A stretch of 64,000 nt of DNA from Thermoplasmata archaeon (GTDB lineage Archaea > Thermoplasmatota > Thermoplasmata > UBA10834): assembly GCA_041559015.1 (NCBI GenBank), contig JBFFED010000005.1, positions 2,577 to 66,576 on the forward strand, given 5' to 3'. Shown piece by piece: positions 12,103 to 35,599 of the stretch (positions are counted from its first letter, which is position 1; each line of letters starts with the position of its first letter). The translations under genes and the position numbers were made by a program. Below the pieces are notes generated by a model that saw nothing but the letters and a program-made list of their open reading frames with translations, made no database searches and had not been told where the DNA came from.

Positions 12103-12136
12103 AGCTTTATAATCAGCCCTGCCTACCCGATTCCCG

Positions 12137-12364: not shown

Positions 12365-12366
12365 AG

Positions 12367-14187: not shown

Positions 14188-14318
14188 ACTTGTTTATTAC
14201 CGAGAATCGTAAGACCACTCAATGGACCGAGTGGATGCGCCAGATGGACTGTCTCGGCGCCCTGTCGCGGGGTCACTCGGGCCGGTCGAGGAATCGTCTA
14301 ACCTGATCAGGAGGGGAG

Positions 14319-16415
14319 GTGGACATGGCCGAACCCGCAAAGCAGGACAAGACAGTCACCACGAACGCATCAGAGGAGCACAAGAAGGGCGAGAAGGCCC
14401 CCAGAGTGGGAGTTTTCGTGTGCCACTGTGGCAGCAACATTGCTGGCGTTGTGGACTGCGGCAAGATCCGGGAGACGGCAGAGAAGATCGGCGACGTGGT
14501 CGTGGCCAAGGAGAACAAGTACACCTGCTCCGACCTCGGCCAGGAGGAGATCATCAAGGCCATCAAGGAGCACGGGGTCGAGAGGGTGGTCGTCGCCGCC
14601 TGCTCGCCGAGGCTCCACGAGCCGACCTTCAGGAAGTGCATCCAGGAGGCCGGCCTCAACCCTTACCTGCTGCACATGGTCAACATCAGGGAGCAGTGCT
14701 CCTGGGTCCACGGGCACGAGAAGGCCAAGGCGACAGAGAAGGCCTCCGAGCTGGTCAAGATGGGCGTCTCGAAGGCCTCGAGGCTCGAGCCGCTCGAGGC
14801 CAGGGAGGTCCCGGTCGAACCGAGCTCGCTCGTGATAGGCGGGGGAGTCGCGGGGATCCAGGCCGCGCTCGACCTGGCGAACATGGGGTTCAAGGTCTAC
14901 ATGGTCGAGAAGGAGCCCAGCATAGGCGGCAAGATGGCCATGCTGGACAAGACGTTCCCGACGGGTGACTGCGCCATATGCATACTCGCGCCCAAGATGG
15001 TCGAGCTGTCCAGGCACCCCAACATCACGCTTCTCTCGTACTCCGAGATCGAGGAGGTCAAGGGGTACATAGGCAACTACGATGTCAAGGTCCGCAGGAA
15101 GGCAAGGTACGTCAAGGAGGACCTCTGCGTCGGGTGCGGGGTTTGCGCGGAGGCCTGTCCGGTCAAGGTCGACAACGAGTTCGACCTCGGGTTCGGCCAG
15201 CGCAGGGCGATATACGTGCCCTTCCCCCAGGCGGTCCCGCTCAAGTACACCATAGACAAGGAGCACTGCCTGCACTTCAAGTCCGGCAAATGCCTCCTGT
15301 GCGTCAAGGCCTGCACCAACAACGCGATCGACCACAAGATGGAGGACGAGGTCGTCAACCTGAAGGTCGGCACCATCATCGTCGCCACTGGCTACGACAT
15401 TTATGTGCCCATGAGAAAGGGCGTCTACAAGTACTGGGAGTACGAGAACGTCATCACCGGGCTGGAACTCGAAAGGCTGCTGAACGCCTCCGGGCCCACA
15501 GGCGGTCACCTGGTCAGACCATCTGACGGGGAGCGGCCCCTGAAGATCGCGTTCATTCAATGCGTGGGCTCCCGCACCAAGAAGATCAACAAGAACTACT
15601 GCTCCAGGGTCTGCTGCATGTACGCTATCAAGAACGCGCAGATCATCATGGAGCACGAGCCTGAGACTGAGATCTCCGTATACTACAACGACATCAGGGC
15701 CTTCGGGAAGGGGTTCGAGGAGCTGTACCACAGGGTCAGGGAGGAGTACGCGGTCGAGTTCATCAGGGGCCGGCCCGCGAAGCTCACGGAGAACCCCGCC
15801 ACCAAGAACATCACGATCAGGGCGGAGGAGACGCTCCTGAACGAGATCACCGAGAGGGAGTTCGACCTCGTGGTCCTGTCGACGGGGCTCATACCCTCCG
15901 AGGGAAGCAAGAACGTCGGCAAGGCGCTGGGGCTCACTACCACCCCCGACGGATTCTTCGCGGAGGCGCACCCGAAGCTGCGGCCGGTCGACACCGCCCT
16001 GGACGGCGTGTACCTGGCGGGTTGCGCCCAGGGACCGAAGGACATACCTGACAGCGTCGCCCAGGCCAAGGCCGCGGCGTCATCCGCGGCGGCCCCCATG
16101 TTCGCGAAGAAAGTCACTATCGAGCCGCTCACAGCGTCCGTCGACGAGGACCTGTGCGTCGGATGCGGGTTGTGCGTCGAGCTGTGCCCGTACGGCGCCC
16201 CGGAGCTGGTGACGGTGGAGAAGGGAGGCACGAAGGCCAGGATCATCGAGGCCCTGTGCCACGGGTGCGGCACATGCGCGGCGTCGTGCCCACAGAAGGC
16301 CATAGCCTGCAAGCAGTTCACGGACGAGCAGATATTCTCCGAGATACTCGCCGCGCTCGGGGGAGAGGGCAAGAAGGCCAACGACCGCAAGAAAGCCGAG
16401 GTGGGGGTGAGCTGA
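14319..16415 (+). CDS. hdrA: Heterodisulfide reductase subunit A, canonical full-length layout
   Basis: 698 aa. N-terminal Cys domain (RVGVFVCHCGSN), FAD fingerprint VIGGGVAGIQAALDLA, KTFPTGDCAICIL, inserted ferredoxin (CVGCGVCAEACP), and C-terminal 2x[4Fe-4S] (CVGCGLCVELCP, CHGCGTCAASCP). Confidence 0.9.
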   Translation: MDMAEPAKQDKTVTTNASEEHKKGEKAPRVGVFVCHCGSNIAGVVDCGKIRETAEKIGDVVVAKENKYTCSDLGQEEIIKAIKEHGVERVVVAACSPRLHEPTFRKCIQEAGLNPYLLHMVNIREQCSWVHGHEKAKATEKASELVKMGVSKASRLEPLEAREVPVEPSSLVIGGGVAGIQAALDLANMGFKVYMVEKEPSIGGKMAMLDKTFPTGDCAICILAPKMVELSRHPNITLLSYSEIEEVKGYIGNYDVKVRRKARYVKEDLCVGCGVCAEACPVKVDNEFDLGFGQRRAIYVPFPQAVPLKYTIDKEHCLHFKSGKCLLCVKACTNNAIDHKMEDEVVNLKVGTIIVATGYDIYVPMRKGVYKYWEYENVITGLELERLLNASGPTGGHLVRPSDGERPLKIAFIQCVGSRTKKINKNYCSRVCCMYAIKNAQIIMEHEPETEISVYYNDIRAFGKGFEELYHRVREEYAVEFIRGRPAKLTENPATKNITIRAEETLLNEITEREFDLVVLSTGLIPSEGSKNVGKALGLTTTPDGFFAEAHPKLRPVDTALDGVYLAGCAQGPKDIPDSVAQAKAAASSAAAPMFAKKVTIEPLTASVDEDLCVGCGLCVELCPYGAPELVTVEKGGTKARIIEALCHGCGTCAASCPQKAIACKQFTDEQIFSEILAALGGEGKKANDRKKAEVGVS

Positions 16416-16416
16416 G

Positions 16417-16995
16417 ATGGCCGAGGTGGAGAAGGTCTTCATAGGCGGCCTGCACGAACAGCTCACCGAGGAGAAGGTCATAGAGGAGAAGGACCTGGAC
16501 CGTGACTTCGCGAAGGAGATCAGGAAGTACGGCGGGAAGGACGTCATGACCTGCCTGCAGTGCGGGAACTGCACGGGCGTGTGCCCAATCAGCCTCAAAA
16601 TCGACTACAAGACCAGGAACATCATCAAGTGCTGTCAGTTCGGGCTCAAGAAGTACACCCTCGGGACGCAGTGGGTATGCGCGACCTGCTACCGCTGCTA
16701 TGAGCACTGCCCCGCGGACCTGAACCCCGCGGAGGTCATGATAGCGCTCAGGCACATAGCGATCAGGGAGGGCATCATACCGCCGTTCGTGAAGACGGCC
16801 GCGACCAACCTGGTCAGGTATGGCCAGAGCGTCAGGCCTGACCCCGAGATTGACAAGATAAGGGTCGAGCTCGGTCTCAAGCCGGTCCATGCGGACGCGG
16901 ACCAGCTGAGGGCTGTTGTCAGGGAGATCCAGACCCTCGTCCACGCGACCAAGTACGACAAGCTCATAGGCATACTGGAGGAGGTGAAGGTGTGA
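16417..16995 (+). CDS. hdrC: Heterodisulfide reductase subunit C
   Basis: 192 aa with two ferredoxin-type motifs, CLQCGNCTGVCP and CATCYRCYEHCP. Starts 1 nt after the hdrA stop. Confidence 0.85.
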   Translation: MAEVEKVFIGGLHEQLTEEKVIEEKDLDRDFAKEIRKYGGKDVMTCLQCGNCTGVCPISLKIDYKTRNIIKCCQFGLKKYTLGTQWVCATCYRCYEHCPADLNPAEVMIALRHIAIREGIIPPFVKTAATNLVRYGQSVRPDPEIDKIRVELGLKPVHADADQLRAVVREIQTLVHATKYDKLIGILEEVKV

Positions 16996-17909
16996 ATTCC
17001 TACCTCTACTTCTTCGGATGTGTCATCCCCAACAGGTACCCGGGCGTCGAGTACGCCGTCCGATGGGTCACGGGGAAGAACGGGTTCGATATGGACGTGA
17101 AGAACTGCGAGGAGTTCTCGTGCTGCCCTGTCCCGGGCATATTCTACTCCACGGACAAGGACACATGGCTCCTGCTGGCGGCCAGGAACCTAGTTCTGGC
17201 GCAGCCTGAGAAGAGGGACATCCTGACCGTCTGCAACGGATGCCTCGCCTCCCTGCTGAAGGCCACCGAGTACCTCCAGGAGCCCAAGAACATGGGCAGG
17301 GTGAACCGCATGCTGGCCAAGGTCGGCAAGAAGTACACGGGGATACCTGTCAGGTCTGAGGGCAGAAGGAAGATCTTCGAGCCCGTCAAGGTCAGGCACT
17401 ACATCGAGGTCATGGCGAACGACATCGGCACCGATGCGATCGCCGAGCATACCAAACACCCTCTCAAGAACCTGAAGGTGGCGGTCCACTACGGCTGCCA
17501 CTACCTGAGACCGACCGAGCACGCCCAGTTCGATGAACCCAACGACCCCGTCCTCCTCGACAGGATAGTCGAGGCGTGCGGCGCTGCCAGCGTGGACTAC
17601 GAGGACAAGCACGACTGCTGCGGCGCAGGCGGAGGAGTCAGGTCTCACATAGTCGAACTGGCGAACTCGCTGACACAGGACAAATGCAGGAACATATCGG
17701 CCGCGGGGGCGGACTGCATCGTGACAGGATGCCCGTTCTGCCTCCTGCAGTTCGACAACGCCCAGAAGAGCTTCGCCAAGGACGGCATCCCCGTGATGCA
17801 CGTCTCGCAGTTCCAGGCGCTGGCGATGGGGATAGACCCGATCTCCCTGGGCTTCGACACGCATCACGTATCCGCACACTCACTGCTCAGAAAGATCAGG
17901 GGGTCCTGA
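16992..17909 (+). CDS. hdrB: Heterodisulfide reductase subunit B (two CCG domains)
   Basis: 305 aa. FFGC...SCCPVPG...CNGC and YGCH...DCCGAGGG...GCPFC. GTGA overlap with hdrC. Confidence 0.85.
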   Translation: MNSYLYFFGCVIPNRYPGVEYAVRWVTGKNGFDMDVKNCEEFSCCPVPGIFYSTDKDTWLLLAARNLVLAQPEKRDILTVCNGCLASLLKATEYLQEPKNMGRVNRMLAKVGKKYTGIPVRSEGRRKIFEPVKVRHYIEVMANDIGTDAIAEHTKHPLKNLKVAVHYGCHYLRPTEHAQFDEPNDPVLLDRIVEACGAASVDYEDKHDCCGAGGGVRSHIVELANSLTQDKCRNISAAGADCIVTGCPFCLLQFDNAQKSFAKDGIPVMHVSQFQALAMGIDPISLGFDTHHVSAHSLLRKIRGS

Positions 17910-17914
17910 GAACA

Positions 17915-18367
17915 ATGGAGGCTTCAACCAATGCACCGGCCCAGGAGGCAGCCTACGAGCCGAAGATAATCGCTTTCTGCTGCAACTGGTGCTCGTACGC
18001 TGGCGCGGACCTCGCGGGCACGACCAGGCTGCAGTATCCCCCGAACGTCAGGATCATCAGGGTCATGTGCTCGGGCAGGGTCGACCCCGCATTCGTGCTC
18101 AAGGCGTTCACCCTGGGTGCGGACGGCGTGATTGTAGCAGGGTGCCACCCGGCGGACTGCCACTACATCAACGGCAACGAGAAGACCGCCATGAGGGGGG
18201 ACTTCCTCAAGTCGTTCCTCGAGGACGCGGGCATCGAGAGCCAGAGGTTCAAGGTAGAATGGATCGCGGGCTCGGAGGGGCGCAAGTTCGCCGAGACCGT
18301 CAAGAAGATGGTGGTGGAGCTGGAGAAGCTGGGGCCGATAGGCCAGGAGGCTGCTGCTGATGGCTGA
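17915..18367 (+). CDS. mvhD: MvhD/FlpD-family iron-sulfur protein
   Basis: 150 aa from ATG 17915. IIAFCCNWCSYAGADLAG...RVMCSGRVDP...VAGCHPADCHY. Confidence 0.9.
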   Translation: MEASTNAPAQEAAYEPKIIAFCCNWCSYAGADLAGTTRLQYPPNVRIIRVMCSGRVDPAFVLKAFTLGADGVIVAGCHPADCHYINGNEKTAMRGDFLKSFLEDAGIESQRFKVEWIAGSEGRKFAETVKKMVVELEKLGPIGQEAAADG

Positions 18368-21300
18368 GAAGAAGGTCGGCGCCGTCCTCGTGGTCGGCGG
18401 AGGGCCCGCGGGGATGCAGGCTGCCCTCGACCTGGCGGACTCGGGCTACAAGGTGTACATCCTCGAGACCACAGCGAGCATAGGCGGCACGATGGCCCAG
18501 CTGGACAAGACCTTCCCGACGAACGACTGCTCGATGTGCATCCTCTCCCCGAAGCTCGTCGCGACGGGCAGGCACGAGAACATCACCATGCTGACCCATG
18601 CCGAGCTCAAGAAGATCGAGGGCAAGGCGGGTAACTTCAAGGTCACACTCAACAGGCATTCCAGATACATAATAGAGGAGAAGTGCACGGGCTGCGGAGT
18701 GTGCGCCGAGCACTGCCCTGTCGAGGGGGTCAACTCGTTCGACAGGGAGATGGCCCCCGCGAAGGCCATCTACGTGCCCTTCCCGCAGGCCGTCCCACTC
18801 GTGTACACGATCGACCGGGGGCTATGCATCGGCTGCGGCGTGTGCGAGAAGTTCTGCGAGGCCACGGCCATCCAGTACTCCCAGAAGCCGGACAAGGAGG
18901 AGGTCCTGGAGGTCGGGGCAGTCATACTCAGTCCCGGGTACGATGTCTTCGAGGCTGGCAGGAAGGTGGAATACGGCCATGGCACGTTCCCGAACGTGCT
19001 GACGAACATCGAATTCGAGAGGATGCTCAGCGCCTCCGGCCCGACTGAGGGGCACGTCATAAGGCCGTCGGACGGCGATGTGCCGAAGAAGATAGCGTTC
19101 ATACAGTGCGTCGGATCGAGGGACTCGCAGACCGGCAACACCTACTGCTCTTCGTACTGCTGCATGGCCGCCCTGAAGCAAGCGGTCATAGGCCAGGAGC
19201 ATGTCCCCGGCCTGCAGACGAAGATATTCTTCATGGACACCCGGGCGTTCGGGAAGGAGTTCGAGGAGTACCTGTTCAGGGCCGAGAACGAGTACGGGGT
19301 CCAGGTGCTCAGGAACACGAGGGTGCCCAAGGTCCAGGAGGACCCCAGCACGAACAACCTCATGATATACTACCACGAAGGCCCCGAGATCAAAGAGGAG
19401 GTCTTCGACATGGTGGTGCTCTCGGCGGGGGCGCAGCCTCCGGCGTCCGGAGCTGCCGCAGCCAAGATCATGGGCATCGAGCTCAACAAGTTCGGCTTCT
19501 GCGAGACTGACGACCTCAGTCCTGTGGAGACTTCGGCGCCAGGGATCTTCGTTTGCGGGGCGTTCTCCGGCCCGAAGGACATCCCCGACTCCATCGCGCA
19601 GGCCAGCGGCGCTGCGGGCAAGGTGGCCGCGCTACTCTCAGAGGAGAGGGGGAAGCTCGTCGCGAAGAAGGAGTACCCTCCCGAGAAGGACGTCTCGGGA
19701 AAGCCCCCCAGGATAGGCGTGTTCGTGTGCCACTGCGGGATCAACATCGGTTCCGTGGTGAACGTCCCGGAGGTCATGGAGTATGCGAAGTCCCTCCCCA
19801 ACGTGGCGTACGTCGAGAGGAACCTCTACACTTGCTCTGGGGACACCCAGAAGAAGATCAGGGAGGTCATCGACAAGCACGACCTGAACAGGGTCGTGGT
19901 CGCGAGCTGCACGCCCAGAACTCACGAGCCGCTCTTCCAGAACACGATCCGGGAGGCGGGCCTGAACAAGTACCTGTTCGACATGGCCAATATCAGGGAC
20001 CAGTGCTCCTGGGTGCACAGGCTGGAGCCAGAGAAGGCCACACAGAAGGCGAAGGACCTTGTCAGGATGGCCGTCGCGAAGGCGGCCAAGTTGGAACCCC
20101 TGCCGCAGCCCAAGATACCTGTCACGCACGCAGCCCTCGTCATAGGGGGAGGGCTCAGCGGCATGGCCGCCGCGCTCGAGATAGCCAAAGCCGGCTTCGA
20201 GGTCCATTTAGTGGAGAAAGACAAGGCCCTCGGAGGGCACCTCAGAAGGATATACCACACCCTAGCGGGCATCGACCCGCAAGAGGCTTTCGAGAGCCTC
20301 AAGAAGGAGATCTCGGAGAACAAGAGGATCAAGGTGCACCTCGGGACTGAGGTGGCCGAGGTCAAGGGGTACATAGGCAACTTCGAGTCCACCCTGAAGA
20401 ACGGCGAGAAGGTCAAGCACGGGGCTGTCGTGGTCGCCACGGGCGGCATCGAGTACGAGCCCAAGGAATACGAGTTCGGCAAGCACAAGAAGGTCATCCG
20501 GCAGACCGAGCTCGGAGAGCTGCTCCATAGCAAGAAATTCAAGGCCGAGAACGTGGTCATCGTGCAGTGTGTCGGCTCCAGGAACGAGGAGCACCCGAAC
20601 TGTTCCAGGATATGCTGCTCGACCGCCCTGGCCAACGCAGTCAAGATCAAGAACGATCACCCGGAGACAAACGTGTTCGTCCTCTACAGGGACATCAGGA
20701 CCTACGGCTTCGCGGAGGAGCACTACAACGAGGCTTCCAGGCTGGGCGTCACCTTCCTCAGATACGACCCCGCCTCCCCGCCGAAGGTCACCTCGAAGGG
20801 GGACGACCTCTTCGTGGAGGTGGACGAGGTCTTCATCGAGCAGGCGGTCCGCATCAAAGCGGACTATCTGGTGCTCAACGCAGCAGTACATCCGAACCCC
20901 GACAACCAGGAGCTGGCCAAGCTGCTGAAGGTCCCGCTCAACAAGGAGGGCTTCTTCCTGGAGGCGCACATGAAGCTGAGGCCGGTCGACTTCGCCACCG
21001 ACGGGATATTCCTGTGCGGTCTGGCGCACTCGCCCAGGCTCATAGGCGAGAGCGTCTCCCAGGCGCTCGCGGCCGCCGCCAGGGTCAACACGGTCCTGTC
21101 GAAGGAGTTCATCGAGGCCGAGGGCGTCGTCAGCGTCGTCGACGAGGACAAGTGCATCGCCTGCGGCAGATGCGAGGAGATCTGCGAGTACGGCGCGCCG
21201 AGCCTGGTGGAGGTCAGGCCAGGCGTCATGAAGTCCAAGATCAACGAGGCGCTCTGCAAGGGCTGCGGGTCGTGTGCGGTCGCATGCTGCTCGCGGGCCA

Positions 21301-21392
21301 TCAGCCCGAAGCACTTCAAGACCGAGCAGATACTGACGATGATTGAGGCGTGCCTCAAGAATGACCTCGAGCAGGAGGAGGCGAGGACATGA
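18360..21392 (+). CDS. Tandem (double) HdrA-like flavoprotein
   Basis: 1010 aa. Unit 1 (aa 1-~425) has the FAD fingerprint, TFPTNDCSMC and the inserted ferredoxin. A linker follows. Unit 2 has an HdrA N-domain-like Cys module (PRIGVFVCHCGIN), a second FAD fingerprint (LVIGGGLSGMAAALEIA, no TFPTxDC) and a C-terminal 2x[4Fe-4S] (CIACGRCEEICE, CKGCGSCAVACC). Confidence 0.85.
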   Translation: MAEKKVGAVLVVGGGPAGMQAALDLADSGYKVYILETTASIGGTMAQLDKTFPTNDCSMCILSPKLVATGRHENITMLTHAELKKIEGKAGNFKVTLNRHSRYIIEEKCTGCGVCAEHCPVEGVNSFDREMAPAKAIYVPFPQAVPLVYTIDRGLCIGCGVCEKFCEATAIQYSQKPDKEEVLEVGAVILSPGYDVFEAGRKVEYGHGTFPNVLTNIEFERMLSASGPTEGHVIRPSDGDVPKKIAFIQCVGSRDSQTGNTYCSSYCCMAALKQAVIGQEHVPGLQTKIFFMDTRAFGKEFEEYLFRAENEYGVQVLRNTRVPKVQEDPSTNNLMIYYHEGPEIKEEVFDMVVLSAGAQPPASGAAAAKIMGIELNKFGFCETDDLSPVETSAPGIFVCGAFSGPKDIPDSIAQASGAAGKVAALLSEERGKLVAKKEYPPEKDVSGKPPRIGVFVCHCGINIGSVVNVPEVMEYAKSLPNVAYVERNLYTCSGDTQKKIREVIDKHDLNRVVVASCTPRTHEPLFQNTIREAGLNKYLFDMANIRDQCSWVHRLEPEKATQKAKDLVRMAVAKAAKLEPLPQPKIPVTHAALVIGGGLSGMAAALEIAKAGFEVHLVEKDKALGGHLRRIYHTLAGIDPQEAFESLKKEISENKRIKVHLGTEVAEVKGYIGNFESTLKNGEKVKHGAVVVATGGIEYEPKEYEFGKHKKVIRQTELGELLHSKKFKAENVVIVQCVGSRNEEHPNCSRICCSTALANAVKIKNDHPETNVFVLYRDIRTYGFAEEHYNEASRLGVTFLRYDPASPPKVTSKGDDLFVEVDEVFIEQAVRIKADYLVLNAAVHPNPDNQELAKLLKVPLNKEGFFLEAHMKLRPVDFATDGIFLCGLAHSPRLIGESVSQALAAAARVNTVLSKEFIEAEGVVSVVDEDKCIACGRCEEICEYGAPSLVEVRPGVMKSKINEALCKGCGSCAVACCSRAISPKHFKTEQILTMIEACLKNDLEQEEART

Positions 21393-22984: not shown

Positions 22985-23244
22985 ACGAAGAAGCATTTGG
23001 GGCCATGATTCAAAGACGAAACTTGCAGATTCCTTGCAGCGATATTCACGATTCGAGTTCATTTGAGGGCGGATTGTGCCTCACTCCGAAGGTATTCGCA
23101 GGAGGGACAGGATGAGGCTAGTGGGGCAGTCAACGAAACACATAAGACAGAGGATGAAATACGGCAAGAAGACAGCGGATTGCGCAACTACAGTGCCCGG
23201 GGGGGCGGAGAATACACACGCAGGATCATGACGGAGGTCTTTGA

Positions 23245-25947: not shown

Positions 25948-25953
25948 TGATGA

Positions 25954-27825: not shown

Positions 27826-27828
27826 GAA

Positions 27829-28650
27829 GTGACCGACAAGCATGCCACACACAGCAGTTCTGACGCTGCCGCGAAGGGCGAATGGGAGCCGAAGGTGATA
27901 GGGTTTCTGTGCAATTGGTGCTCATACGCGGGGGCGGACCTCTGCGGCGTGAGCCGATTCCAGTATCCGACGGACATACGCCTGATCAGGGTCATGTGTT
28001 CCACTCGAATCAGCCCGCACCTTGTGCTGAACCTGTTCGAGGCGGGAGCCGACGGGATCCTCATAGGCGGATGCCACCTGAACGACTGCCATTACATATC
28101 AGGCAACTTCCACACGGAGAAACGCGCAAGACTCATGAACAAGCTGCTGGAAATGACCGGAATAGAGCCGAAGAGACTGAGGCTCGAGTGGGTCTCGGCC
28201 TCCGAGGGTGAGAAGTTCTCCAAGGTCGTCACCGAATTCACCGACACTGTCAAGAAGCTCGGGCCCAGCAAGGTCGGGAAAGATGATCTCCTGAGGGCGA
28301 AGGCGACCGCCGCCGACGAGGCATCTGAGACCTTCAGAATCAAGGCCCTTGTTGGAAAGGAGTTGAATCTGGAGACAAAGGGCAATGTATACGGTGACAC
28401 ACGGAGCAAGGATGACCTCGAGAAGATCGTGGACAAGTCGGCTGAGGAAGAGTTCGAGAGAAGTCTCATAATTGAGCTCTCGAGGCAGCAGCCAAGATCC
28501 GTAAAAGATCTCAGCAAGATAATGGGCGTTCCAGCAGATCAGGTCCTGCGGCATATCGTTGTGCTGAGGCAGAGGAACCTGATCTCGATGGACCACCCGG
28601 AAGGATTCACGCCAACATACAGGGCAATTGAGATAGGAGGTGAGCAGTGA
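27829..28650 (+). CDS. MvhD-domain protein with a C-terminal winged-helix-like extension
   Basis: 273 aa, GTG start 3 nt after the upstream stop. VIGFLCNWCSYAGADLCG...GGCHLNDCHY. The last ~120 aa end in an HTH-like segment (RSVKDLSKIMGVPADQVLRHIVVLRQRNLI). Confidence 0.8.
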   Translation: MTDKHATHSSSDAAAKGEWEPKVIGFLCNWCSYAGADLCGVSRFQYPTDIRLIRVMCSTRISPHLVLNLFEAGADGILIGGCHLNDCHYISGNFHTEKRARLMNKLLEMTGIEPKRLRLEWVSASEGEKFSKVVTEFTDTVKKLGPSKVGKDDLLRAKATAADEASETFRIKALVGKELNLETKGNVYGDTRSKDDLEKIVDKSAEEEFERSLIIELSRQQPRSVKDLSKIMGVPADQVLRHIVVLRQRNLISMDHPEGFTPTYRAIEIGGEQ

Positions 28651-31600
28651 TGGCTGCTACGGACACGATAGGCGCGGTTATGGTCGTTGGAGGAGGCATA
28701 TCGGGCATGCAGTCCGCCCTCGATCTGGCAGATTCGGGGTACAAGGTATACCTCATCGAGAAGCAGCCGAGCATCGGTGGCACCATGGCCCAGCTGGACA
28801 AGACTTTCCCCACGAACGACTGCGCGATGTGCATCATGGCGCCCAAGCTCGTTTCCACGGGCAGGCACCACAACATCGAGCTTGTGACGAATGCAGACGT
28901 CGCATCTGTCGAAGGTGAGGCCGGGAACTTCAAGGTGACCGTCAAGCAGAGGGCTTTCAGGGTCGATCCCACCAAGTGTACTGGATGCGGCAGCTGCGCG
29001 CAGAAGTGTCCCATCGAGACCGACGACGAGTACAATGAGGGGACCAAGGTCAGGAAGGCGATATATGTGCGTTATCCACAGGCTGTTCCACTCGTGTATT
29101 CGATCGACCTCGACAAGTGCATAGGCTGCGGGATATGCTCGGAGGAATGCAAGGCCAAGGCCGTCGTCTACGACCAGAAGGAGAAGACCATGGAGATCAG
29201 GGTCGGCTCGATAATCGTCTCTCCTGGCTTCGACGAGTTCAATGCGAGGCTCAAGGGGGAGTACGGTTACGGCGTCTACAAGAACGTCGTATCCAGCATC
29301 GAGTTCGAGAGGATGCTCTCGGCGACAGGTCCGTACTTCGGCACTGTGATGAGACCTTCTGACGGCGACATCCCGGAGAAGATAGCATTCATACAATGCG
29401 TCGGATCAAGGGACGAGCACGTCGGCCACGAGTACTGCTCAAGCGTTTGCTGCATGTACTCCATCAAGGAGGCCGTCATAGCGAAGGAGCATGGAGGGAA
29501 CATCAAGCCAACCATCTTCTTCATGGACATGCGGGCATTCGGGAAGGAGTTCGACGAGTACTACAACCGGGCTCAGAACGAATATGGCATCAGGTTCATC
29601 AGGTCGAGGGCAGCCGGCATCACAGAGGACCCGAAGACGAAGAACCTCAAGGTGAAGTACACCGATGGTGGAGAGCCAAAGGAAGAGGAGTTCGGCCTCG
29701 TCGTGCTTGCTGTGGGTCTCGCACCTCCTGCGGATTCGGAGAGCCTGAGCAAGGCGATGAAGTTCGGGCTGAACGACGACGGTTTCGCTCAGACGAATGT
29801 GTTCTCTCCTCTCGACACCTCGAGGCCTGGGATATTCGTCAGTGGCGCTTTCTCGTCACCCAAGGACATCCCGATGACCGTCGCCGAGGCGTCTGGCGCG
29901 GCGGCGAAAGCGTCGACACAGATCGCGAGCGCGAGGAACACGCTCGTCACCAAGAAGGAGTACCCGGCCGAGATCAGCGTCGAGGGGCAGGAACCCCGGA
30001 TAGGAGTGTTCGTCTGCCACTGCGGCATCAACATAGGAGGCGTCGTGAAGGTACCCGAGGTCATGGAGTACGCCAAGACGCTCCCGAATGTGGTGTACGC
30101 AGAGCAGAATCTGTACACCTGCTCCCAGGACACACAGGAGAAGATCAAGGAGAAGGTGAAGGAGCTCAAGCTGAACAGGGTGATAGTTGCCTCCTGCACG
30201 CCGAGGACGCACGAGCCGTTGTTCCAGAATACCATCAGGGAGGCCGGACTCAACGCCTACCTGTTCGAGATGGCCAATATCAGAGACCAATGCTCGTGGA
30301 TACACATGCACGAGCCCAAGGCCGCCACGAAGAAAGCCAAGGACCTCGTCAGAATGGCGGCAGCTAAAGCAAGGCTTCTGGAACCTCTGGAGAACCTGAC
30401 GCTCAAGGTGAACCAGACTGGGCTGGTTGTCGGAGGAGGTGTGGCGGGGATGATGGCGGCACTTGAGATCGCGAAACAGGGTTTCAAGGTGCACCTGGTC
30501 GAGAGAGAGAAGGAGCTCGGAGGGAACGCGCTCAAGCTGCACTACTTGCCATCTGGAGATGACCCGACCGCGTTCGTGAAGGACCTGGAGAAGCAGGTCA
30601 CATCGAATCCGAACATAACGGTCCACAAGGGCGCGAAGATACTGAGCATCGACGGCTATGTCGGCAATTTCAAGACGAAGCTCGGCGACGGCAAGGAGCT
30701 GGAGCATGGAGTGGTCATCCTCGCGATTGGAGGACTGGAGTACAAGCCCGAGGGCGAGTACCTCTACGGCAAGAACAAGCAGGTGACGACCCTGCTCGAG
30801 TTCAAGGAGCAGCTCCACAAGGGCCACGCCAAGGGCAACGAGTATGTATTCATCCAGTGTGTCGGCTCCAGAGAGGAAGGACATCCCAACTGCTCAAGGG
30901 TATGCTGCACGGGCACGATGACAGCGGCGATAGAGATCAAGAAGCGCGACCCGAAAGCGAAGGTCTTCGTCCTTTACAGGGACATCAGGACCTACGGCTT
31001 CAGAGAGAAGTACTACAAGGAGGCAGCCAGGCTCGGAGTGACCTTCATAAGATTCGACGACGCCGTCAAGCCGAAGGTGGAGGATAAGGGCGGGAAGATC
31101 ACAGTGCATGTGAAGGATGAGGACACTGGCAAGGATGTGGTCCTGAAGCCGGACCACCTCGTACTGGCGACAGGCACCAGGGCACAGCCGGACGCTGGGG
31201 CACTCGCTCCGATGTGCAAGGTGCCCCAGACGAAGGAGGGTTTCTTCCTTGAGGCGCACATGAAACTGCGGCCGGTGGACTTCGCAACCGATGGTATATT
31301 CCTCGCAGGGTTGGCACACGGCCCCAAGTTCATTGACGAGAGCATCTCCCAGGCTCTGGGTGCAGTCGCAAGAGCGGGGACAATCCTGTCCAAGACCGAG
31401 CTGGAGGCTGAGGGGATAGTGGCCAAGATCGACGAAACCTTCTGCGATGGATGCGGGATATGTGTCCCGGTCTGCGAGTACAAGGCGCTCGAGGTCATCC
31501 CTGACAAGAAGGATCCGGAGAAGAAGCTCGTGGAGGTCAATGTAGGGCTCTGCAAGGGCTGCGGCGCGTGTGTGGGCACGTGCCCGTCCGGTGCCCTGAC

Positions 31601-31697
31601 GCAGATGGGCTACAAGGACGAGCAGATATACGCGATGATAGATGCCATGCTTGAAGAGGAGCATCCCGGGCAGGAGGTGAAGCAGAATGAGCACTGA
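28647..31697 (+). CDS. Tandem (double) HdrA-like flavoprotein, paralogue of 18360..21392
   Basis: 1016 aa, collinear with the 1010-aa protein. VVGGGISGMQSALDLA, TFPTNDCAMC, PRIGVFVCHCGIN, LVVGGGVAGMMAALEIA, CDGCGICVPVCE / CKGCGACVGTCP. Confidence 0.85.
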   Translation: MMAATDTIGAVMVVGGGISGMQSALDLADSGYKVYLIEKQPSIGGTMAQLDKTFPTNDCAMCIMAPKLVSTGRHHNIELVTNADVASVEGEAGNFKVTVKQRAFRVDPTKCTGCGSCAQKCPIETDDEYNEGTKVRKAIYVRYPQAVPLVYSIDLDKCIGCGICSEECKAKAVVYDQKEKTMEIRVGSIIVSPGFDEFNARLKGEYGYGVYKNVVSSIEFERMLSATGPYFGTVMRPSDGDIPEKIAFIQCVGSRDEHVGHEYCSSVCCMYSIKEAVIAKEHGGNIKPTIFFMDMRAFGKEFDEYYNRAQNEYGIRFIRSRAAGITEDPKTKNLKVKYTDGGEPKEEEFGLVVLAVGLAPPADSESLSKAMKFGLNDDGFAQTNVFSPLDTSRPGIFVSGAFSSPKDIPMTVAEASGAAAKASTQIASARNTLVTKKEYPAEISVEGQEPRIGVFVCHCGINIGGVVKVPEVMEYAKTLPNVVYAEQNLYTCSQDTQEKIKEKVKELKLNRVIVASCTPRTHEPLFQNTIREAGLNAYLFEMANIRDQCSWIHMHEPKAATKKAKDLVRMAAAKARLLEPLENLTLKVNQTGLVVGGGVAGMMAALEIAKQGFKVHLVEREKELGGNALKLHYLPSGDDPTAFVKDLEKQVTSNPNITVHKGAKILSIDGYVGNFKTKLGDGKELEHGVVILAIGGLEYKPEGEYLYGKNKQVTTLLEFKEQLHKGHAKGNEYVFIQCVGSREEGHPNCSRVCCTGTMTAAIEIKKRDPKAKVFVLYRDIRTYGFREKYYKEAARLGVTFIRFDDAVKPKVEDKGGKITVHVKDEDTGKDVVLKPDHLVLATGTRAQPDAGALAPMCKVPQTKEGFFLEAHMKLRPVDFATDGIFLAGLAHGPKFIDESISQALGAVARAGTILSKTELEAEGIVAKIDETFCDGCGICVPVCEYKALEVIPDKKDPEKKLVEVNVGLCKGCGACVGTCPSGALTQMGYKDEQIYAMIDAMLEEEHPGQEVKQNEH

Positions 31698-32145
31698 GAT
31701 CGCACAGACGTCCACCCCGGATGAGGAGGGGGGCAAGTTCGATCCGAAATTGCTGGTGTTCTGCTGCAACTGGTGCTCTTACGCGGGGGCAGACCTCGCG
31801 GGAGTCAGCAGGCTGCAGATGCCCCCGTACTTCAGGGTAATCAGGGTAATGTGCTCCGCCAGAGTGGACCCTGAATTCATTCTGAGGGCGTTCCAGAAGG
31901 GGGTGGATGGGGTCCTGGTGGCGGGCTGCCATCCAGCGGACTGCCACTACATCGGAGGCAACTACAGGACTCGCAGGAGGATTGCCCTGCTGAAGATGCT
32001 CATCCAGCAGTTCGGATTCGACCCCGACAGACTGAAGCTGGAGTGGGTGTCAGCAGGCGAAGGCGAGAAGTTCCAGAAGACCATCGTCGAGTTCACCAAT
32101 ACTGTCAAGGAACTAGGGGCCTCGCCCTTCCGAGGTGGTGTATGA
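31687..32145 (+). CDS. mvhD: MvhD/FlpD-family iron-sulfur protein
   Basis: 152 aa. LLVFCCNWCSYAGADLAG...VAGCHPADCHY. Overlaps the upstream stop by 11 nt. Confidence 0.9.
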   Translation: MSTEIAQTSTPDEEGGKFDPKLLVFCCNWCSYAGADLAGVSRLQMPPYFRVIRVMCSARVDPEFILRAFQKGVDGVLVAGCHPADCHYIGGNYRTRRRIALLKMLIQQFGFDPDRLKLEWVSAGEGEKFQKTIVEFTNTVKELGASPFRGGV

Positions 32146-32518
32146 TATGTCCTTGAGGGAGGCCAGGGTGCGAGCGGCCCTTAGGACACTCGAGGGCGAG
32201 AGAGTCAGGTGGCTCCTGGGCAAGAAGGGGTCGCTGACATCGACCGGCAATGTCTTCGGCGAGGTGATCACCGAGCCGAGGTATGACTTCATAGTCCAGA
32301 AGGCTGCCGCAATCGAGCTCGAGAGGAACCTACTGCTCCAGGAGATGGAGGAAGGGTCGAGGACCGTCCACGAGCTGCACAGAGCCACGGGCATCGCGAA
32401 GCCCGAGATTGTGAGGCACGTGATCGCGCTCAAGAGGTGGAGGCTGGTAGAGCAGGTGGGCACCAAGGGCCAGTCGCCACAGTACATGGCCGCACCGAGG
32501 AAGAAAGAGGTGAACTGA
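32135..32518 (+). CDS. Small winged-helix-like protein homologous to the C-terminal extension of the 27829..28650 protein
   Basis: 127 aa (GTG 32135/32138 or ATG 32147). TGNVFGE... and RTVHELHRATGIAKPEIVRHVIALKRWRLV align by eye with KGNVYGD... and RSVKDLSKIMGVPADQVLRHIVVLRQRNLI. Overlaps the mvhD stop and ends 2 nt before mvhG. Confidence 0.65.
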   Translation: MVYDMSLREARVRAALRTLEGERVRWLLGKKGSLTSTGNVFGEVITEPRYDFIVQKAAAIELERNLLLQEMEEGSRTVHELHRATGIAKPEIVRHVIALKRWRLVEQVGTKGQSPQYMAAPRKKEVN

Positions 32519-32520
32519 AC

Positions 32521-33537
32521 ATGGCAGATAAGATCAAGATAGCACAATACTGGGGAGCTGGTTGCGGAGGCTGCGACGTCGCTCTCCTGGACATAGATGC
32601 GAAGATACTGGACGTGCACGCGATCGCGGAGGTCGTCTTCTGGCCGATAGGCTTCGACGGGAAGATCAAGGACATCGAGGCGATGCCAGACAAGTCGATT
32701 ACGGTCAGCTTCTACAACGGGGCGATAAGGAATAGCGAGAACGAACACATAGCCAAGCTCTTGAGGCAGAAGTCGGTCATCATGATCTCATTCGGGTCGT
32801 GCGCGTGCTTCGGGGGCACGCCCGGACTCGCGAACGTGACGAACAGGAAAGAGGTGTTCGATACAGTCTACAGGCAGACGCAATCCACGGACAACCCGAA
32901 TGGCGTGATGCCGCAGACCCACATCAAGGTGAAAGAAGGCGAGCTCGATCTGCCGGAGTTCTACGACACCGTCAAGACGCTGGACGAGGTCGTGGATGTC
33001 GACTACTTCATGCCAGGGTGCCCGCCAACAGTCAACCTGATTGCCATGGCGGTGGATGCCGTGGCGCAGCACGTCACGAAGGGCGCGCCACTCCCACCCA
33101 AGGGGACCATCATAGCCTCGGACAAGACCCTGTGCGACGAGTGCAACAGAGAGAGGGTGGAGAAGAACCGGAGGATCGAGAGGATCTACCAAGCTTATGA
33201 GATCACGCCAGACCCGAAGAAGTGTCTCCTAGACCAGGGGATCATATGCATCGGGCCTGCCACGAGAGCTGGGTGCGGCGCGATGTGCCCGAACGCACAG
33301 ATGCCCTGCAGGGGCTGCATGGGTCCGACCAGGGCAGTCATGGAGCAGGGTGCGAGCATGCTGAGCGCCGTCTCCTCGCTGCTGAACATCACGGATTCGG
33401 AGTCAAAGCTAAGTGAGGAGCAGATAATGGAACTGATGATGCAGGTCAAGGACCCGCTAGGCACGTTCTATGCATTCACGCTGCCGAAGTCCGCGCTCAA
33501 GCGGGTTGTGACCGAGAAGAAGAAGAGGAAGGGGTGA
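32521..33537 (+). CDS. mvhG: [NiFe] hydrogenase small subunit, F420-non-reducing (Mvh) type
   Basis: From ATG 32521: WGAGCGGCDVALLD, FGSCACFGG, MPGCPP, and a distal cluster region CDECNRE...GPATRAGCGAMCPNAQMPCRGCMGP. Confidence 0.9.
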   Translation: MADKIKIAQYWGAGCGGCDVALLDIDAKILDVHAIAEVVFWPIGFDGKIKDIEAMPDKSITVSFYNGAIRNSENEHIAKLLRQKSVIMISFGSCACFGGTPGLANVTNRKEVFDTVYRQTQSTDNPNGVMPQTHIKVKEGELDLPEFYDTVKTLDEVVDVDYFMPGCPPTVNLIAMAVDAVAQHVTKGAPLPPKGTIIASDKTLCDECNRERVEKNRRIERIYQAYEITPDPKKCLLDQGIICIGPATRAGCGAMCPNAQMPCRGCMGPTRAVMEQGASMLSAVSSLLNITDSESKLSEEQIMELMMQVKDPLGTFYAFTLPKSALKRVVTEKKKRKG

Positions 33538-33543
33538 TCAATA

Positions 33544-35058
33544 ATGGCCGGACCTATCATCAACGACACACCGACTAAGACGAAGGAAAAGAAGATCACT
33601 ATCGACCCCATCACGAGGCTTGAGGGGCACGGTAAAATCGTGATATTCCTGAACGACCAGGGGAACGTCGAGAACGCGTACCTCCAGGTGCCGGAGCTGA
33701 GAGGCTTCGAGAGGTTCTGCATCGGAAGGCACGTGATGGAGCTGCCGGTGCTCACGAACAGGCTATGCGGAGTCTGCCCCGCGGCACACCATATCGCCTC
33801 GATGAAGACCCTGGACGCGGTGTTCAGCGCCACACCGACAGAGACGGCAAAGAAGATCCGCGAGCTCTTCTACATGGGCCAGTACGTCCACAGCCACATA
33901 GCGCACTTCTACGCGCTCGCGGCACCGGACTTCGTGCTGGGACCATCGGCCCCTGCGAACAAGCGCAACGTGCTGGGGGTTGTCGACGCCGTCGGAGTGC
34001 CCATAGGCGCCGAGGTCATAAAGCACAGGTCTTACGGTCAGAAGGTGCAGGAAATCACAGGCGGAAGGGCGACGCACCCAGTGTTCGGCCTCCCTGGAGG
34101 AGTGTCCAAACAGATTTCAGAGGAGGAGAGGGCCCAGATAGAGGAGATGGCGAAATCGTGCGTCGAGTTCGGCAAGTTCACCATCAAGTTGTTCCACGAC
34201 CTCGTCCTCGGGAACAAGGACTACATGTCCCTCGTCCTCAACAAAGACGCGTACTACCTCGACACGTACTACATGGGCATGGTCGACAAGGACAACAAGA
34301 CGAACTTCTACGATGGGGACATAAGAGTCGTCGACCAGGAGGGCAAGGAGGTCGAGAGGTTCAAGCCGGACCAGTACCTGGACGTCATCGCCGAGCACGT
34401 CGAGCCCTGGACCTACATGAAAATGCCCTTTCTCAAGAAGGTCGGCTGGAAGGGGTTCACCACCGGGAAGCAGAGCGGCATATACCGAGTCGGCCCGTTG
34501 GGCAGAATCAACGTGTGCGGTGGCTACACCACTCCTCTCGCACAGAAGGAGTATGAGTTCCTCGCGAAGACCGTCAAGGACCTGGGCGTCACGGGGCCCG
34601 TGCATTTCACACTTGCGTACCATTGGGCGCGGGCAATCGAGCTACAGTACGCCGCCGAGAGGATGCTCGAGCTGGCGAGTGACAAGAAGCTCACGAGCGA
34701 CGACATCAGGGGACCCATTGGGCAGCCCAAAGAGGGCGTCGGCATCTGCGAGGCGCCGAGGGGTACGCTGATACACCACTACGCCTCTGATAAGGACGGC
34801 CTCTGCACCAAGATCAACATGATAGTGGCCTCGACGAACAACTATGCGGCGAGCAACACGAGCGTCAAGCAGGCTGCAACCGCCCTCATCAAGAACTGGG
34901 AGGTCTCGCCCGGACTGCTGAACAAGGTGGAGATGGCCTTCAGGTGCTACGACCCATGCCATTCGTGCGGGACGCACTCGCTGAACGGCGGGCCAGCGCT
35001 GGAGGTCACGATAAAGCGCAGAGACGGTTCTGTCCTGACCAAGCTGAGAAACTTCTGA
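33544..35058 (+). CDS. mvhA: [NiFe] hydrogenase large subunit, Mvh type
   Basis: 504 aa. N-terminal ligand motif RLCGVCPAAH. C-terminal DPCHSCGTH followed by a 26-aa extension, the expected protease substrate. Confidence 0.92.
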   Translation: MAGPIINDTPTKTKEKKITIDPITRLEGHGKIVIFLNDQGNVENAYLQVPELRGFERFCIGRHVMELPVLTNRLCGVCPAAHHIASMKTLDAVFSATPTETAKKIRELFYMGQYVHSHIAHFYALAAPDFVLGPSAPANKRNVLGVVDAVGVPIGAEVIKHRSYGQKVQEITGGRATHPVFGLPGGVSKQISEEERAQIEEMAKSCVEFGKFTIKLFHDLVLGNKDYMSLVLNKDAYYLDTYYMGMVDKDNKTNFYDGDIRVVDQEGKEVERFKPDQYLDVIAEHVEPWTYMKMPFLKKVGWKGFTTGKQSGIYRVGPLGRINVCGGYTTPLAQKEYEFLAKTVKDLGVTGPVHFTLAYHWARAIELQYAAERMLELASDKKLTSDDIRGPIGQPKEGVGICEAPRGTLIHHYASDKDGLCTKINMIVASTNNYAASNTSVKQAATALIKNWEVSPGLLNKVEMAFRCYDPCHSCGTHSLNGGPALEVTIKRRDGSVLTKLRNF

Positions 35059-35143
35059 ACACTTTCGGTGAGGAGGGGGGACCTCCCCCTCATGACGCCT
35101 CTTCTCCTCTAGTCCTAACACAGGCATCTGGTTGAGAGAAACG

Positions 35144-35599
35144 ATGAAGAAAACACTGGTCCTCGGAGTCGGGAACCCGATTCTGTCCGACGATGGAGTT
35201 GGCATACACGTCGCCAGGATACTCAAGGGAAGGAGGCTCCCGGGAGTCGTCGTCGAAGAGCTACCTGCAAGCGGGCTGGAGCTACTCGACATGGTGCTCG
35301 ATTTCGACAAGGTCGTGATTGTCGATGCCATCAAGACGAAGGGAGGTGTGCCTGGGGAGCACTACATGCTCGAGGAGGATGACTTCGAGAAGTCGGTCCA
35401 TGGCGCATCTCCTCATGGAATCAACATCGCTACGGCCATCGGGCTCGGCAGGAAGATAGTGCCTGAAAGGATGCCGAAAGAGGTCATCTTCATAGCCGTC
35501 GAGGCGGAAGACCTGCACAACCTCAGTGAGAAGCTCACGGACAGTGTCGAGGAGGCGCTGCCGAGAATTGTGAACAGGGTGGTTGAAGAGGTCTCGTGA
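35144..35599 (+). CDS. Hydrogenase maturation endopeptidase
   Basis: From ATG 35144: MKKTLVLGVGNPILSDDGVGIHV..., VIVDAI, HGASPHG. Directly downstream of mvhA. Confidence 0.85.
   Translation: MKKTLVLGVGNPILSDDGVGIHVARILKGRRLPGVVVEELPASGLELLDMVLDFDKVVIVDAIKTKGGVPGEHYMLEEDDFEKSVHGASPHGINIATAIGLGRKIVPERMPKEVIFIAVEAEDLHNLSEKLTDSVEEALPRIVNRVVEEVS

Follow-up and report, generated by a model that had tools for sequence, protein, structure and literature searches.

The 64,000-nucleotide stretch of DNA considered here, hereafter the window, comes from a Thermoplasmata archaeon (assembly GCA_041559015.1, contig JBFFED010000005.1, positions 2,577 to 66,576) and carries, between positions 14319 and 35599, a 21-kb array of hdr and mvh genes lying on the + strand. 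An earlier interpretation, the sequence-only reading, had described this Hdr/Mvh island as a multi-module system with a single hydrogenase, and each gene that it had named was found again, in the same order, by open reading frame (ORF), Pfam and NCBIfam annotation. Its count of four HdrA cores, four MvhD domains, two CCG modules and one hydrogenase, represented by one mvhGA pair, was also recovered and could be refined: the cores are encoded by five hdrA genes, which make up seven thioredoxin-reductase-type HdrA units, equal to four dimer-equivalents. For comparison, the characterised MvhAGD-HdrABC complex uses one HdrA, one MvhD and one HdrBC per protomer.

The island opens with module I, formed by a four-domain hdrA1 (A1; 14319-16415, with a probable ATG at 14325 and a score of 910 bits to 5odc_A), hdrC1 with two [4Fe-4S] motifs (16417-16995; TIGR03290, 117 bits), hdrB1 with two CCG domains (16992-17909; CCG E = 6e-32) and mvhD1, which encodes 150 amino acids (17915-18367; FlpD E = 8e-54). 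The position of this first mvhD is the one correction to the earlier gene calls, all of which otherwise stood: it lies in the frame of the ORF at 17576-18367, while the ORF at 17989-18360, in another frame, has no Pfam match. Module II consists of a fused tandem hdrA, A2, of 1010 amino acids (18360-21392; recognised by blastp against 5odc_A), and of an mvhD::hdrC::hdrB triple fusion of 531 amino acids (21389-22984; FlpD 1e-53, two-cluster Fer4, CCG 3e-23), whose MvhD domain is referred to as D2. A gap of 260 bp (22985-23244) separates the two halves of the island. Module III then comprises A3, an hdrA unit 1 of 900 amino acids with an NfnB/GltD-like insert (23245-25947; NF009410, 550 bits across amino acids 150-641), A4, an hdrA unit 2 of 623 amino acids (25954-27825; HdrA domain pattern against 5odc_A), and mvhD3::wHTH, an MvhD of 273 amino acids with a winged helix-turn-helix (wHTH) part (27829-28650; FlpD E = 5e-51). 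Module IV is built from a second fused tandem hdrA, A5, of 1016 amino acids (28647-31697; Pfam and blastp) and mvhD4 of 152 amino acids (31687-32145; FlpD E = 5e-55). These are followed by a small wHTH gene of 123 amino acids (32147-32518, within an ORF that begins at 32135; HTH_5 E = 3e-5), by mvhG for the [NiFe]-hydrogenase small subunit (32521-33537, 338 amino acids from the ATG; Oxidored_q6 E = 4e-19), by mvhA for a group-3 [NiFe]-hydrogenase large subunit (33544-35058; NiFeSe_Hases) and by a HycI-type hydrogenase maturation protease gene (35132-35599; PF01750 E = 5e-14). Within each half the genes overlap by 4-11 nt or are spaced by 1-6 nt, with the exception of 73 nt before the protease gene. 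The translations of the island genes are free of frameshifts and internal stop codons. Interruption of genes by selenocysteine was considered and rejected, as all island ORFs are continuous and no selenocysteine codons were seen.

To compare the cores, the HdrA units were aligned to residues 3-646 of the solved HdrA 5odc_A, rebuilt from a sequence alignment. HdrA1 is 60% identical to this reference across residues 3-646, retains the cluster-binding cysteines, Cys194/Cys197, E356 and K409, and is the only one of the five proteins that alone carries everything expected of a single HdrA; the other genes present the full feature set only as complementary pairs of units. Unit 1, which corresponds to the N-terminal half of A2 and A5 and to the whole of A3, begins at about reference residue 145, without the N-terminal domain, and ends before the C-terminal ferredoxin domain, keeping Cys194/Cys197, both cluster motifs of the inserted ferredoxin domain, the HA4 cysteines, E356 and K409. 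Unit 2, the C-terminal half of A2 and A5 and the whole of A4, holds the cysteines of the N-terminal domain, the HA4 cysteines and the eight cysteines of the C-terminal ferredoxin domain, and lacks Cys194/Cys197 and the inserted ferredoxin domain. In A2, for example, unit 1 spans amino acids 1-440 and unit 2 amino acids 441-1010, and blastp places amino acids 10-428 on reference residues 145-565, 450-676 on 2-229 and 688-995 on 320-644; A5 is 56% identical to A2. Each of the 28 reference cysteines retained in A1 is either kept in units 1 and 2 or lost as a complementary block between them.

The residues E356 and K409 are regarded as hallmarks of the bifurcating FAD (PMC12054007). They are present in A1, in unit 1 of A2, in A3, in A4 and in unit 1 of A5, and they are lost in unit 2 of A2 (G, A) and in unit 2 of A5 (K, T). 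The equivalents of K409 are K273 in unit 1 and Ala in unit 2 of A2, and Lys274 in unit 1 and Thr759 in unit 2 of A5, whose unit 1 also contains a Cys59/Cys62 pair. Both the complementarity of the units and the distribution of E356/K409 recur unchanged in 9-10 orthologous loci, which argues for design and not decay; the concern that units with missing cofactor motifs might be pseudogenes is thereby answered, given that the motifs missing from one unit are supplied by its partner and that this arrangement is conserved in the orthologues.

In the canonical complex MvhD sits on the mobile arm of HdrA, which acts on the opposite protomer, at its FAD, its Cys pair and its inserted ferredoxin domain. 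By their domain content, unit 2 of the pseudo-dimers corresponds to the mobile arm and unit 1 to the catalytic half, so each fused HdrA has the anatomy of one complete circuit, and each pseudo-dimer would be equivalent to half of the symmetric HdrA dimer of methanogens. Judged from these alignments, module I contains a canonical homodimer-type HdrA, modules II and IV contain fused pseudo-dimers and module III contains a pseudo-dimer split into two genes. Since the homologues of A3 and A4 are joined in a single ORF of 1500 amino acids in the locus L009, A3 and A4 are expected to act together.

Two further observations concern individual HdrA proteins. HdrA1 scores 956 bits against a cut-off of 1100 for the HdrA2 model of NCBIfam, and 679 bits against a cut-off of 1400 for another. 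For HdrA1 and for all four MvhD domains the best NCBIfam model is NF040770, which describes the HdrA::MvhD fusion HdrA2 of Methanosarcina, and not VhuD; HdrA1 covers model positions 1-642 and the MvhD domains cover its C-terminal part (633-777 in the case of mvhD1), so module I resembles a split HdrA2-type enzyme. A4 contains at amino acids 369-377 (27058-27084) the stretch ERRRRRRGR, located within a low-complexity insert of about 70 amino acids after the HA4 Cys motif. Its RRRRRRGR part is invariant in ten of ten orthologues (one reads DRRRRRRGR). Neither the other HdrA units nor solved HdrA contain it.

The MvhD domains differ in their cysteines and in what is attached to them. The proteins encoded by mvhD1 and mvhD4 have all six conserved cysteines, MvhD3 reads FLCNWC, with the first Cys changed to Leu in all orthologues, and D2 lacks the Cys of the VMC motif in this genome alone; the CHxxDC motif retains its His and Asp in each of the four domains. 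The C-terminal 128 amino acids of MvhD3 are homologous to the free wHTH protein, with 30% identity and a score of 64.7 bits. For the free protein, AlphaFold2 predicted N-terminal helices followed by a winged helix at a mean predicted local distance difference test (pLDDT) score of 78.8. Its HTH_5 score is 24.3 bits against a cut-off of 22, and Foldseek returned weak matches to ArsR/SmtB proteins (E of about 1e-3, TM-scores of 0.4-0.5), so that the wHTH fold, and not a function, can be called from them. Column identity in its alignment averages 77%, an unusually high conservation. When 1.84 billion cluster representatives were searched with a profile, 260 relatives were obtained; an MvhD (FlpD) domain was present in 69 of the 80 longer ones, and two others were named HdrA by their source. 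A sequence search of the PDB with the C-terminal domain of MvhD3 gave no match.

Taken together, the homology of the free protein to the C-terminus of MvhD3, the prevalence of MvhD fusions among the relatives and the precedent of BamF, the MvhD adaptor of class II benzoyl-CoA reductase (BCRII), suggest that the wHTH part most likely acts as a protein-protein adaptor between MvhD and a partner, rather than as a regulator. From the gene order mvhD-wHTH-mvhG and the BCRII structure, this adaptor may be presumed to touch the electron-input module. The converse idea, in which the wHTH gene and the wHTH part of MvhD3 are ArsR-type regulators of the island that sense redox state via the [2Fe-2S] cluster of MvhD, appears improbable. 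It draws on the Pfam matches to HTH_5 and IclR, on ArsR/SmtB, BigR and MarR repressors being the closest folds and on some databases naming the relatives ArsR regulators. However, those Foldseek matches are of the low quality just given, the longer relatives mostly carry an MvhD domain, the free gene is packed between mvhD and mvhG with gaps of 1-2 nt, its conservation is unusually high, and in BCRII, the structure of which is solved, BamF uses its wHTH for protein-protein contact.

As regards the electron outputs, the cofactor motifs are intact in HdrB1, HdrC1 and the HdrCB part of the fusion. HdrB1 has all ten cysteines for two non-cubane clusters and scores 280 bits to 5odc_B, and the [4Fe-4S] motifs CLQCGNCTGVCP and CATCYRCYEHCP are visible in the alignment of HdrC1. 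Against the NCBIfam models the scores are 321 bits for HdrB1 (cut-off 345) and 117 bits for HdrC1 (cut-off 160). In the triple fusion, the MvhD domain is followed by a Pro-rich linker of about 25 residues and by an HdrD-like domain with two [4Fe-4S] motifs and two complete CCG motifs; PDB sequence matches to MvhD and to HdrC were obtained. Homologues of the fusion number 3942 at E <= 1e-20, the cluster representative P0001 is 100% identical to it, and among the best 120 of the 3942 the named ones are nearly all from Thermoplasmata or Thermoplasmatota. The hydrogenase is likewise intact in its cofactor motifs. MvhA has the motifs RLCGVC and DPCHSC, the latter followed by a C-terminal extension of 26 amino acids for the protease, and its best solved relatives are 7t2r_D, the large subunit of the bifurcating NiFe-HydABCSL, with 381 bits, and the MvhA 5odc_F, with 371 bits. 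MvhG has 13 cysteines, and most orthologue matches start at residue 29 of the longer ORF.

The insert of A3 comprises about 480 amino acids (approximately 23692-25110, or residues 150-627) and lies between the two cluster motifs of the inserted ferredoxin domain, C105xxCxxCxxxC115 and a Cys-rich region at amino acids 620-640, both of which are retained. It has the FAD motif GAGPAG at amino acid 251 and the pyridine-nucleotide motif GGGNAA at amino acid 381, followed by VTVLYRRTR, and it scores 343 bits to NfnB of T. maritima (4ylf_B), 464 bits to 9bov_A and 334 bits to the large subunit of NfnI of P. furiosus (5jca_L). Under the rule that GxGxxA denotes NADPH preference (PMC12054007), the insert would prefer NADPH. 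The sequence-only reading had assigned to it an NAD(P)H input, and here the presence of the insert was upheld and its assigned role was qualified. By its position, it sits at the low-potential exit of HdrA and not at the MvhD entry port, so input from NAD(P)H becomes one reading among several. The insert is moreover dispensable, given that it is absent from the close relatives L013 and L014 and from the distant L033-L036; in L013 and L014, A3 has an intact ferredoxin domain in place of the one split by the insert. Among the island and window ORFs scanned, no NfnA/PyrK-like partner was found.

The synteny scan, in which each species was represented by one genome, found the whole array collinear in nine loci (L001-L008 and L013); L014, a short contig, contains the downstream half. 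These loci come from metagenome-assembled genomes (MAGs) assigned to Thermoplasmata, Thermoplasmatota or 'Methanobacteriota', with two closed chromosomes among them, and their proteins are 62-87% identical to those of the window. The check for synteny that had been proposed earlier thus came out in favour of a real arrangement. The suspicion that the island is an assembly artefact or a set of decaying duplicates could invoke the repetitiveness of the region at the protein level and the Cys to Tyr change of D2 in this genome only, and yet it can hardly be correct: the array recurs in at least ten independent assemblies, closed chromosomes included, the paralogous DNA inside the island is only 60-82% identical, the genes are uninterrupted, and the cofactor motifs are complementary and conserved in the orthologues.

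More distant relatives (L033-L036, about 55-60% identity) share a core of [tandem + MvhD::wHTH], [tandem + MvhD::HdrCB], [unit 1 + unit 2 + MvhD::wHTH] and [tandem + MvhD]. A divergent, inverted [NiFe] hydrogenase stands beside this core, the loci contain no canonical hdrABC, and their CCG content differs too. An MvhD follows each HdrA pseudo-dimer, with the sole exception of one at the cut edge of L035, and this pattern identifies the recurring unit as an HdrA pseudo-dimer plus one MvhD-family protein. Judging from the distribution among these loci, module I, the NfnB-like insert and the co-directional mvhGA with a free wHTH gene look like later additions in the clade of the window.

Several observations were made in individual relatives. 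In L009, a hot-spring Thermoplasmata MAG, the ORF of 1500 amino acids that fuses the insert-bearing unit 1 with unit 2 occupies positions 9902-14404. An mvhD comes next, and the genes further downstream, up to 17798, encode a Fer4_8 protein, a Fer4_22 protein and an NfnA/PyrK-like protein (NAD_binding_1 and DHODB_Fe-S_bind). In L013, the gap between the halves, at about 9346-10000, measures about 650 bp and contains an apparent extra small frame with a repeated Cys-rich motif that is absent from the window. Three loci of Chloroflexi/Anaerolineae MAGs (L010, L012 and L030) encode an HdrA of the insert-bearing kind, called type III, that is 48-55% identical to that of the window. L010 and L012 combine it with hdrC, hdrB, a tandem hdrA, mvhD, a gene for a CBS protein, an HdrD-like gene and a full-length hdrA, and L030 has the type III match alone. 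Horizontal transfer between archaea and Chloroflexi may account for these type III proteins.

Alignment of the orthologous gaps revealed two promoter-like elements. P1, AACGAAAC GT ATATAAATA, is located at 14169-14190 on the + strand, about 150 nt upstream of hdrA1, and P2, AACGAAAC AC ATAAGA, at 23132-23150 on the + strand, in the 260-bp gap and about 113 nt upstream of A3. The sequence AACGAAAC occurs twice in the window, in these two intergenic gaps of the island, and the element common to both halves can be written as AACGAAAC-N2-ATA(T/A)A. For P1, AACGAAAC is also found upstream of hdrA1 in L003, L007 and L008; for P2, the AACGAAAC-N2-ATAA block is invariant in ten of ten aligned genomes and is present in all ten collinear orthologous loci. 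The elements are probably promoters resembling B recognition element (BRE)/TATA sequences that drive two co-regulated units, or else the site of a common regulator. The predicted P1 unit would contain hdrA1-hdrC1-hdrB1-mvhD1, A2 and the triple fusion, that is, both CCG modules and no input module. The predicted P2 unit would contain A3, A4, mvhD3::wHTH, A5, mvhD4, the wHTH gene, mvhG, mvhA and the protease gene and no CCG module; it holds the hydrogenase, the NfnB-like module and both wHTH parts.

As had been noted before, hyp genes bracket the island: hypB (9183-9884), hypF (9895-12102), hypC (12137-12364), hypA (12367-12741) and hypD (about 12734-13810) lie upstream on the + strand, with Pfam matches to cobW/HypB, HypF domains, HypA (4e-27) and HypD (2e-127), and hypE lies downstream on the - strand (35608-36663; AIRS and AIRS_C domains). 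The set serves the maturation of [NiFe] hydrogenases, and the inverted hypE is syntenic in the orthologous loci. No second hydrogenase was found in the window, and no other electron-donor modules were found in the flanks, which extend over approximately 14 kb upstream and 28 kb downstream. Elsewhere the window carries housekeeping genes, with a histidine biosynthesis operon, a tRNA synthetase, an NAD synthase and, at its end, a 2-oxoacid:ferredoxin oxidoreductase pair (61891-63959, - strand; POR_N/PFOR_II and a TPP-binding subunit), a possible source or sink of the ferredoxin of the island. An ORF of 1104 amino acids at 599-3913 (+) matches no Pfam family at E <= 1e-5, and the same applies to ORFs of 334, 223, 280, 419, 235 and 564 amino acids at 36958-39516 (-) and 42132-46433 (-).

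All of the component types present in the island have already been published. Among the paralogues of HdrA in anaerobic methanotrophic (ANME) archaea, the complementarity of units and an NfnB-like insertion were described by Chadwick and others (Chadwick 2022, PMC9012536), and later work classified as type II those HdrA proteins that fuse classes A6 and A12, and as type III those with a GltD insertion (Lyu 2025, PMC12054007). Clusters with these types are known from ANME-1, from other methane/alkane archaea and from Bathyarchaeota, and HdrD-like subunits are known in hdrA clusters (PMC9012536, PMC12054007); only genomes with mcrA or mcrA-like genes were analysed in both surveys (PMC9012536, PMC12054007). 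A2 and A5 correspond to type II, with fused units, a complementary N-terminal domain and Cys197, and A3 corresponds to type III, with the GltD/NfnB-like module within the inserted ferredoxin domain. As in the island, type II/III clusters combine several hdrA genes with mvhD and HdrD-like genes. The island differs from them in its host, a Thermoplasmata lineage outside the surveys, and in having no FdhB or molybdopterin partners. Further differences are the separate unit-2 gene and the MvhD::wHTH that accompany its type III unit, the MvhD::HdrC::HdrB triple fusion, and the organisation as one conserved set with two promoter-like elements together with a hydrogenase and hyp genes.

Another close counterpart is the BamDEF(GHI) assembly of Geobacter metallireducens, whose solved subunit BamE is reported to share the layout of the fused HdrA proteins of the island; the likeness to BamE and BamF is drawn from the description in a cryo-EM preprint and not from an alignment. 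BamE is a fused HdrA dimer in which unit 1 carries the bifurcating FAD (Lys280, Cys59-Cys62) and unit 2 a non-bifurcating structural FAD (10.64898/2026.04.10.717634), and to these residues correspond Cys59/Cys62 and Lys274 of A5. BamF is an MvhD adaptor whose wHTH contacts the input module, and the HdrD-like BamD takes the high-potential electron (10.64898/2026.04.10.717634). The BamF-like MvhD with a wHTH extension of more than 100 residues is matched by MvhD3, and the island has a free wHTH gene in addition. The two systems differ in their input, which is the NuoEF-like BamGHI in the one and a [NiFe] hydrogenase in the other, and the tungsten-dependent output BamBC is absent from the island. 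A sequence search of the PDB found no solved fused HdrA.

The MvhADG-HdrABC enzyme of hydrogenotrophic methanogens, solved as 5ODC and later in cryo-EM supercomplexes, finds its full subunit set in module I plus MvhGA. Its one-per-protomer stoichiometry differs from that of the island, where a single mvhGA pair accompanies five hdrA genes, four MvhD domains and two CCG modules. In addition, all cores of the island but that of module I are asymmetric pseudo-dimers, and the hydrogenase genes come after a fused HdrA and not after the canonical one. The MetFV-HdrABC-MvhD complex of Moorella thermoacetica combines a fused two-FAD HdrA with complementary domain loss, MvhD and HdrBC, and has no hydrogenase; the island, conversely, lacks metF and metV and has a hydrogenase and an NfnB-like insert. 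With NfnAB/NfnSL the insert shares the two-cluster N-terminal region and the FAD and pyridine-nucleotide motifs, but in the island the NfnB-like part is inserted in HdrA instead of being a free subunit, and an NfnA-like partner is missing.

Multiple and fused copies of HdrA are also known in ANME-1, Asgard and TACK archaea. In the literature on Thermoplasmata, Thermoprofundales and Marine Benthic Group D (MBG-D), generic mentions of HdrABC/MvhADG were found and no description of the array; where papers deal with related Thermoplasmata, they go no further than 'multiple hdrABC/mvhADG homologues' and a heterodisulfide that they call unknown. The earlier remark that the exact arrangement was not recognised as a described system therefore stands for Thermoplasmata, for which no paper describing it was found, and not for its parts, each of which has been described (types II and III, HdrD-like proteins, BamDEF). 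What is new in the searchable literature is the conserved composite island itself, the MvhD that follows each core and comes with one of three appendages, the occurrence of the wHTH adaptor in both split and fused form, and the presence or absence of the NfnB-like insert among close relatives.

The presence of four cores next to one hydrogenase and two CCG modules makes it most likely that the cores are alternative platforms that share partners. For the four HdrA cores, each of which is followed by an MvhD-family adaptor, the analysis leans, by a little over even chances, to shared use of the one hydrogenase and the two CCG modules. MvhAG would oxidise H2 and, aided by the small wHTH adaptor, pass the electrons via MvhD4 to the bifurcating FAD of module IV. 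The low-potential electron would go to ferredoxin or, in module III, move through the NfnB-like module to or from NADP(H), and the high-potential electron would exit via HA4 to HdrBC or to the HdrCB of the fusion, reducing a disulfide. Which partner module is used would be set by what the MvhD carries at its C-terminus (nothing, wHTH or HdrCB).

Several points weigh against this proposal. Both the mechanism and the pairing of partners are drawn from sequence, and the pairing is conjectural given that modules III and IV have no CCG module, and modules I and II no input module, in their own unit. E356/K409 are kept in A4 but lost from unit 2 of A2 and A5, so module III may differ in its working. 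The NfnB-like module is placed on a branch that normally ends at ferredoxin, which leaves its thermodynamic role ambiguous. HdrA1, HdrB1 and HdrC1 fall under the NCBIfam equivalog cut-offs, so CoM-S-S-CoB is not established as the substrate, and related Thermoplasmata lineages have been described in papers as non-methanogenic. Lastly, Tyr44 of D2 (codon TAC, 21518-21520) replaces the Cys of RVMCSGR that is present in nine of nine orthologous loci, and this may represent a weakened MvhD domain, a strain variant or a sequencing error.

The same cores could instead form one supercomplex with serial bifurcation, in which all four surround the single hydrogenase and are chained by the MvhD appendages (wHTH, HdrCB), and in which the bifurcated electrons of one core feed the next to attain lower potentials, or to reduce ferredoxin, NADP+ and a disulfide at once. 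Such an assembly seems unlikely. In its favour, every core has its own MvhD while inputs and outputs vary in both close and distant relatives (apart from the cut edge of L035), the loci of about 20 kb in the distant relatives keep several cores with one CCG module, the promoter-like motif is common to both units, and the MvhD::HdrCB fusion physically connects a mobile-arm docking part with one that docks at HA4. There are precedents as well, as coupled bifurcation modules are documented in BCRII and a two-step bifurcation has been proposed for the type II and type I clusters of ANME archaea. On the other hand, the Pro-rich linker of about 25 residues fits equally well with both domains of the fusion lying on the same HdrA, and the halves of the island have separate promoter-like elements.

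If instead the direction of electron flow were reversed, the island would mainly perform H2-evolving confurcation in a fermenter, where reduced ferredoxin supplied by 2-oxoacid oxidoreductases and NADPH, entering via the NfnB-like module, yield H2 and the CCG modules serve redox balancing. The wiring of the NfnB-like module to the ferredoxin port of module III, the about equal scores of MvhA to the two solved large subunits, the 2-oxoacid:ferredoxin oxidoreductase at 61891-63959 and the description of the SG8-5 Thermoplasmata lineage as a peptide degrader are all in keeping with this, and it is still judged rather doubtful: the insert is missing in L013, L014 and L033-L036 while the rest is kept, which argues that NADPH coupling is not the core function, and the conservation of complete CCG active sites suggests a real disulfide/thiol substrate. 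It is also improbable that the modules are clustered for co-regulation only, with modules I-III working independently and their partners (F420H2, formate or NADH dehydrogenases, DsrC-like proteins) encoded elsewhere, even though HdrA1 and the four MvhD domains best fit the model of HdrA2, HdrA2B2C2 uses F420H2 without extra subunits, and related modules stand beside other neighbours in L010 and L012 from Chloroflexi. The strict gene order and the tight packing (overlaps or gaps of 1-6 nt) across ten genomes speak against it, as does the lack of other donor modules in the flanking 14 and 28 kb already mentioned. Shared use of one hydrogenase and two CCG modules by alternative HdrA platforms remains the preferred explanation.

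Flavin-based bifurcation by HdrA is central to anaerobic energy conservation, and the wiring of the 'extra' HdrA copies in uncultured archaea is the question addressed by this island. There is a slim chance that it encodes a single multi-core machine, in which MvhD adaptors that differ at their C-terminus (no appendage plus a free wHTH, a fused wHTH or a fused HdrCB) chain several single-circuit cores to one [NiFe] hydrogenase for two or more serial bifurcations or for simultaneous distribution of electrons to ferredoxin, NADP+ and a disulfide; if true, this would represent a modular MvhD-based wiring not yet shown by any purified Hdr enzyme. With one canonical and three asymmetric cores, differing MvhD appendages, one hydrogenase and a variably present NfnB-like module, the island constitutes a natural experiment. 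It could be used to test whether the MvhD appendage picks the partner, whether asymmetric HdrA proteins are single-circuit enzymes, what type III HdrA does with NADP(H), and which disulfide is employed by a lineage without an established link to methanogenesis. The island also extends the range of type II and type III HdrA beyond the mcrA-containing archaea.

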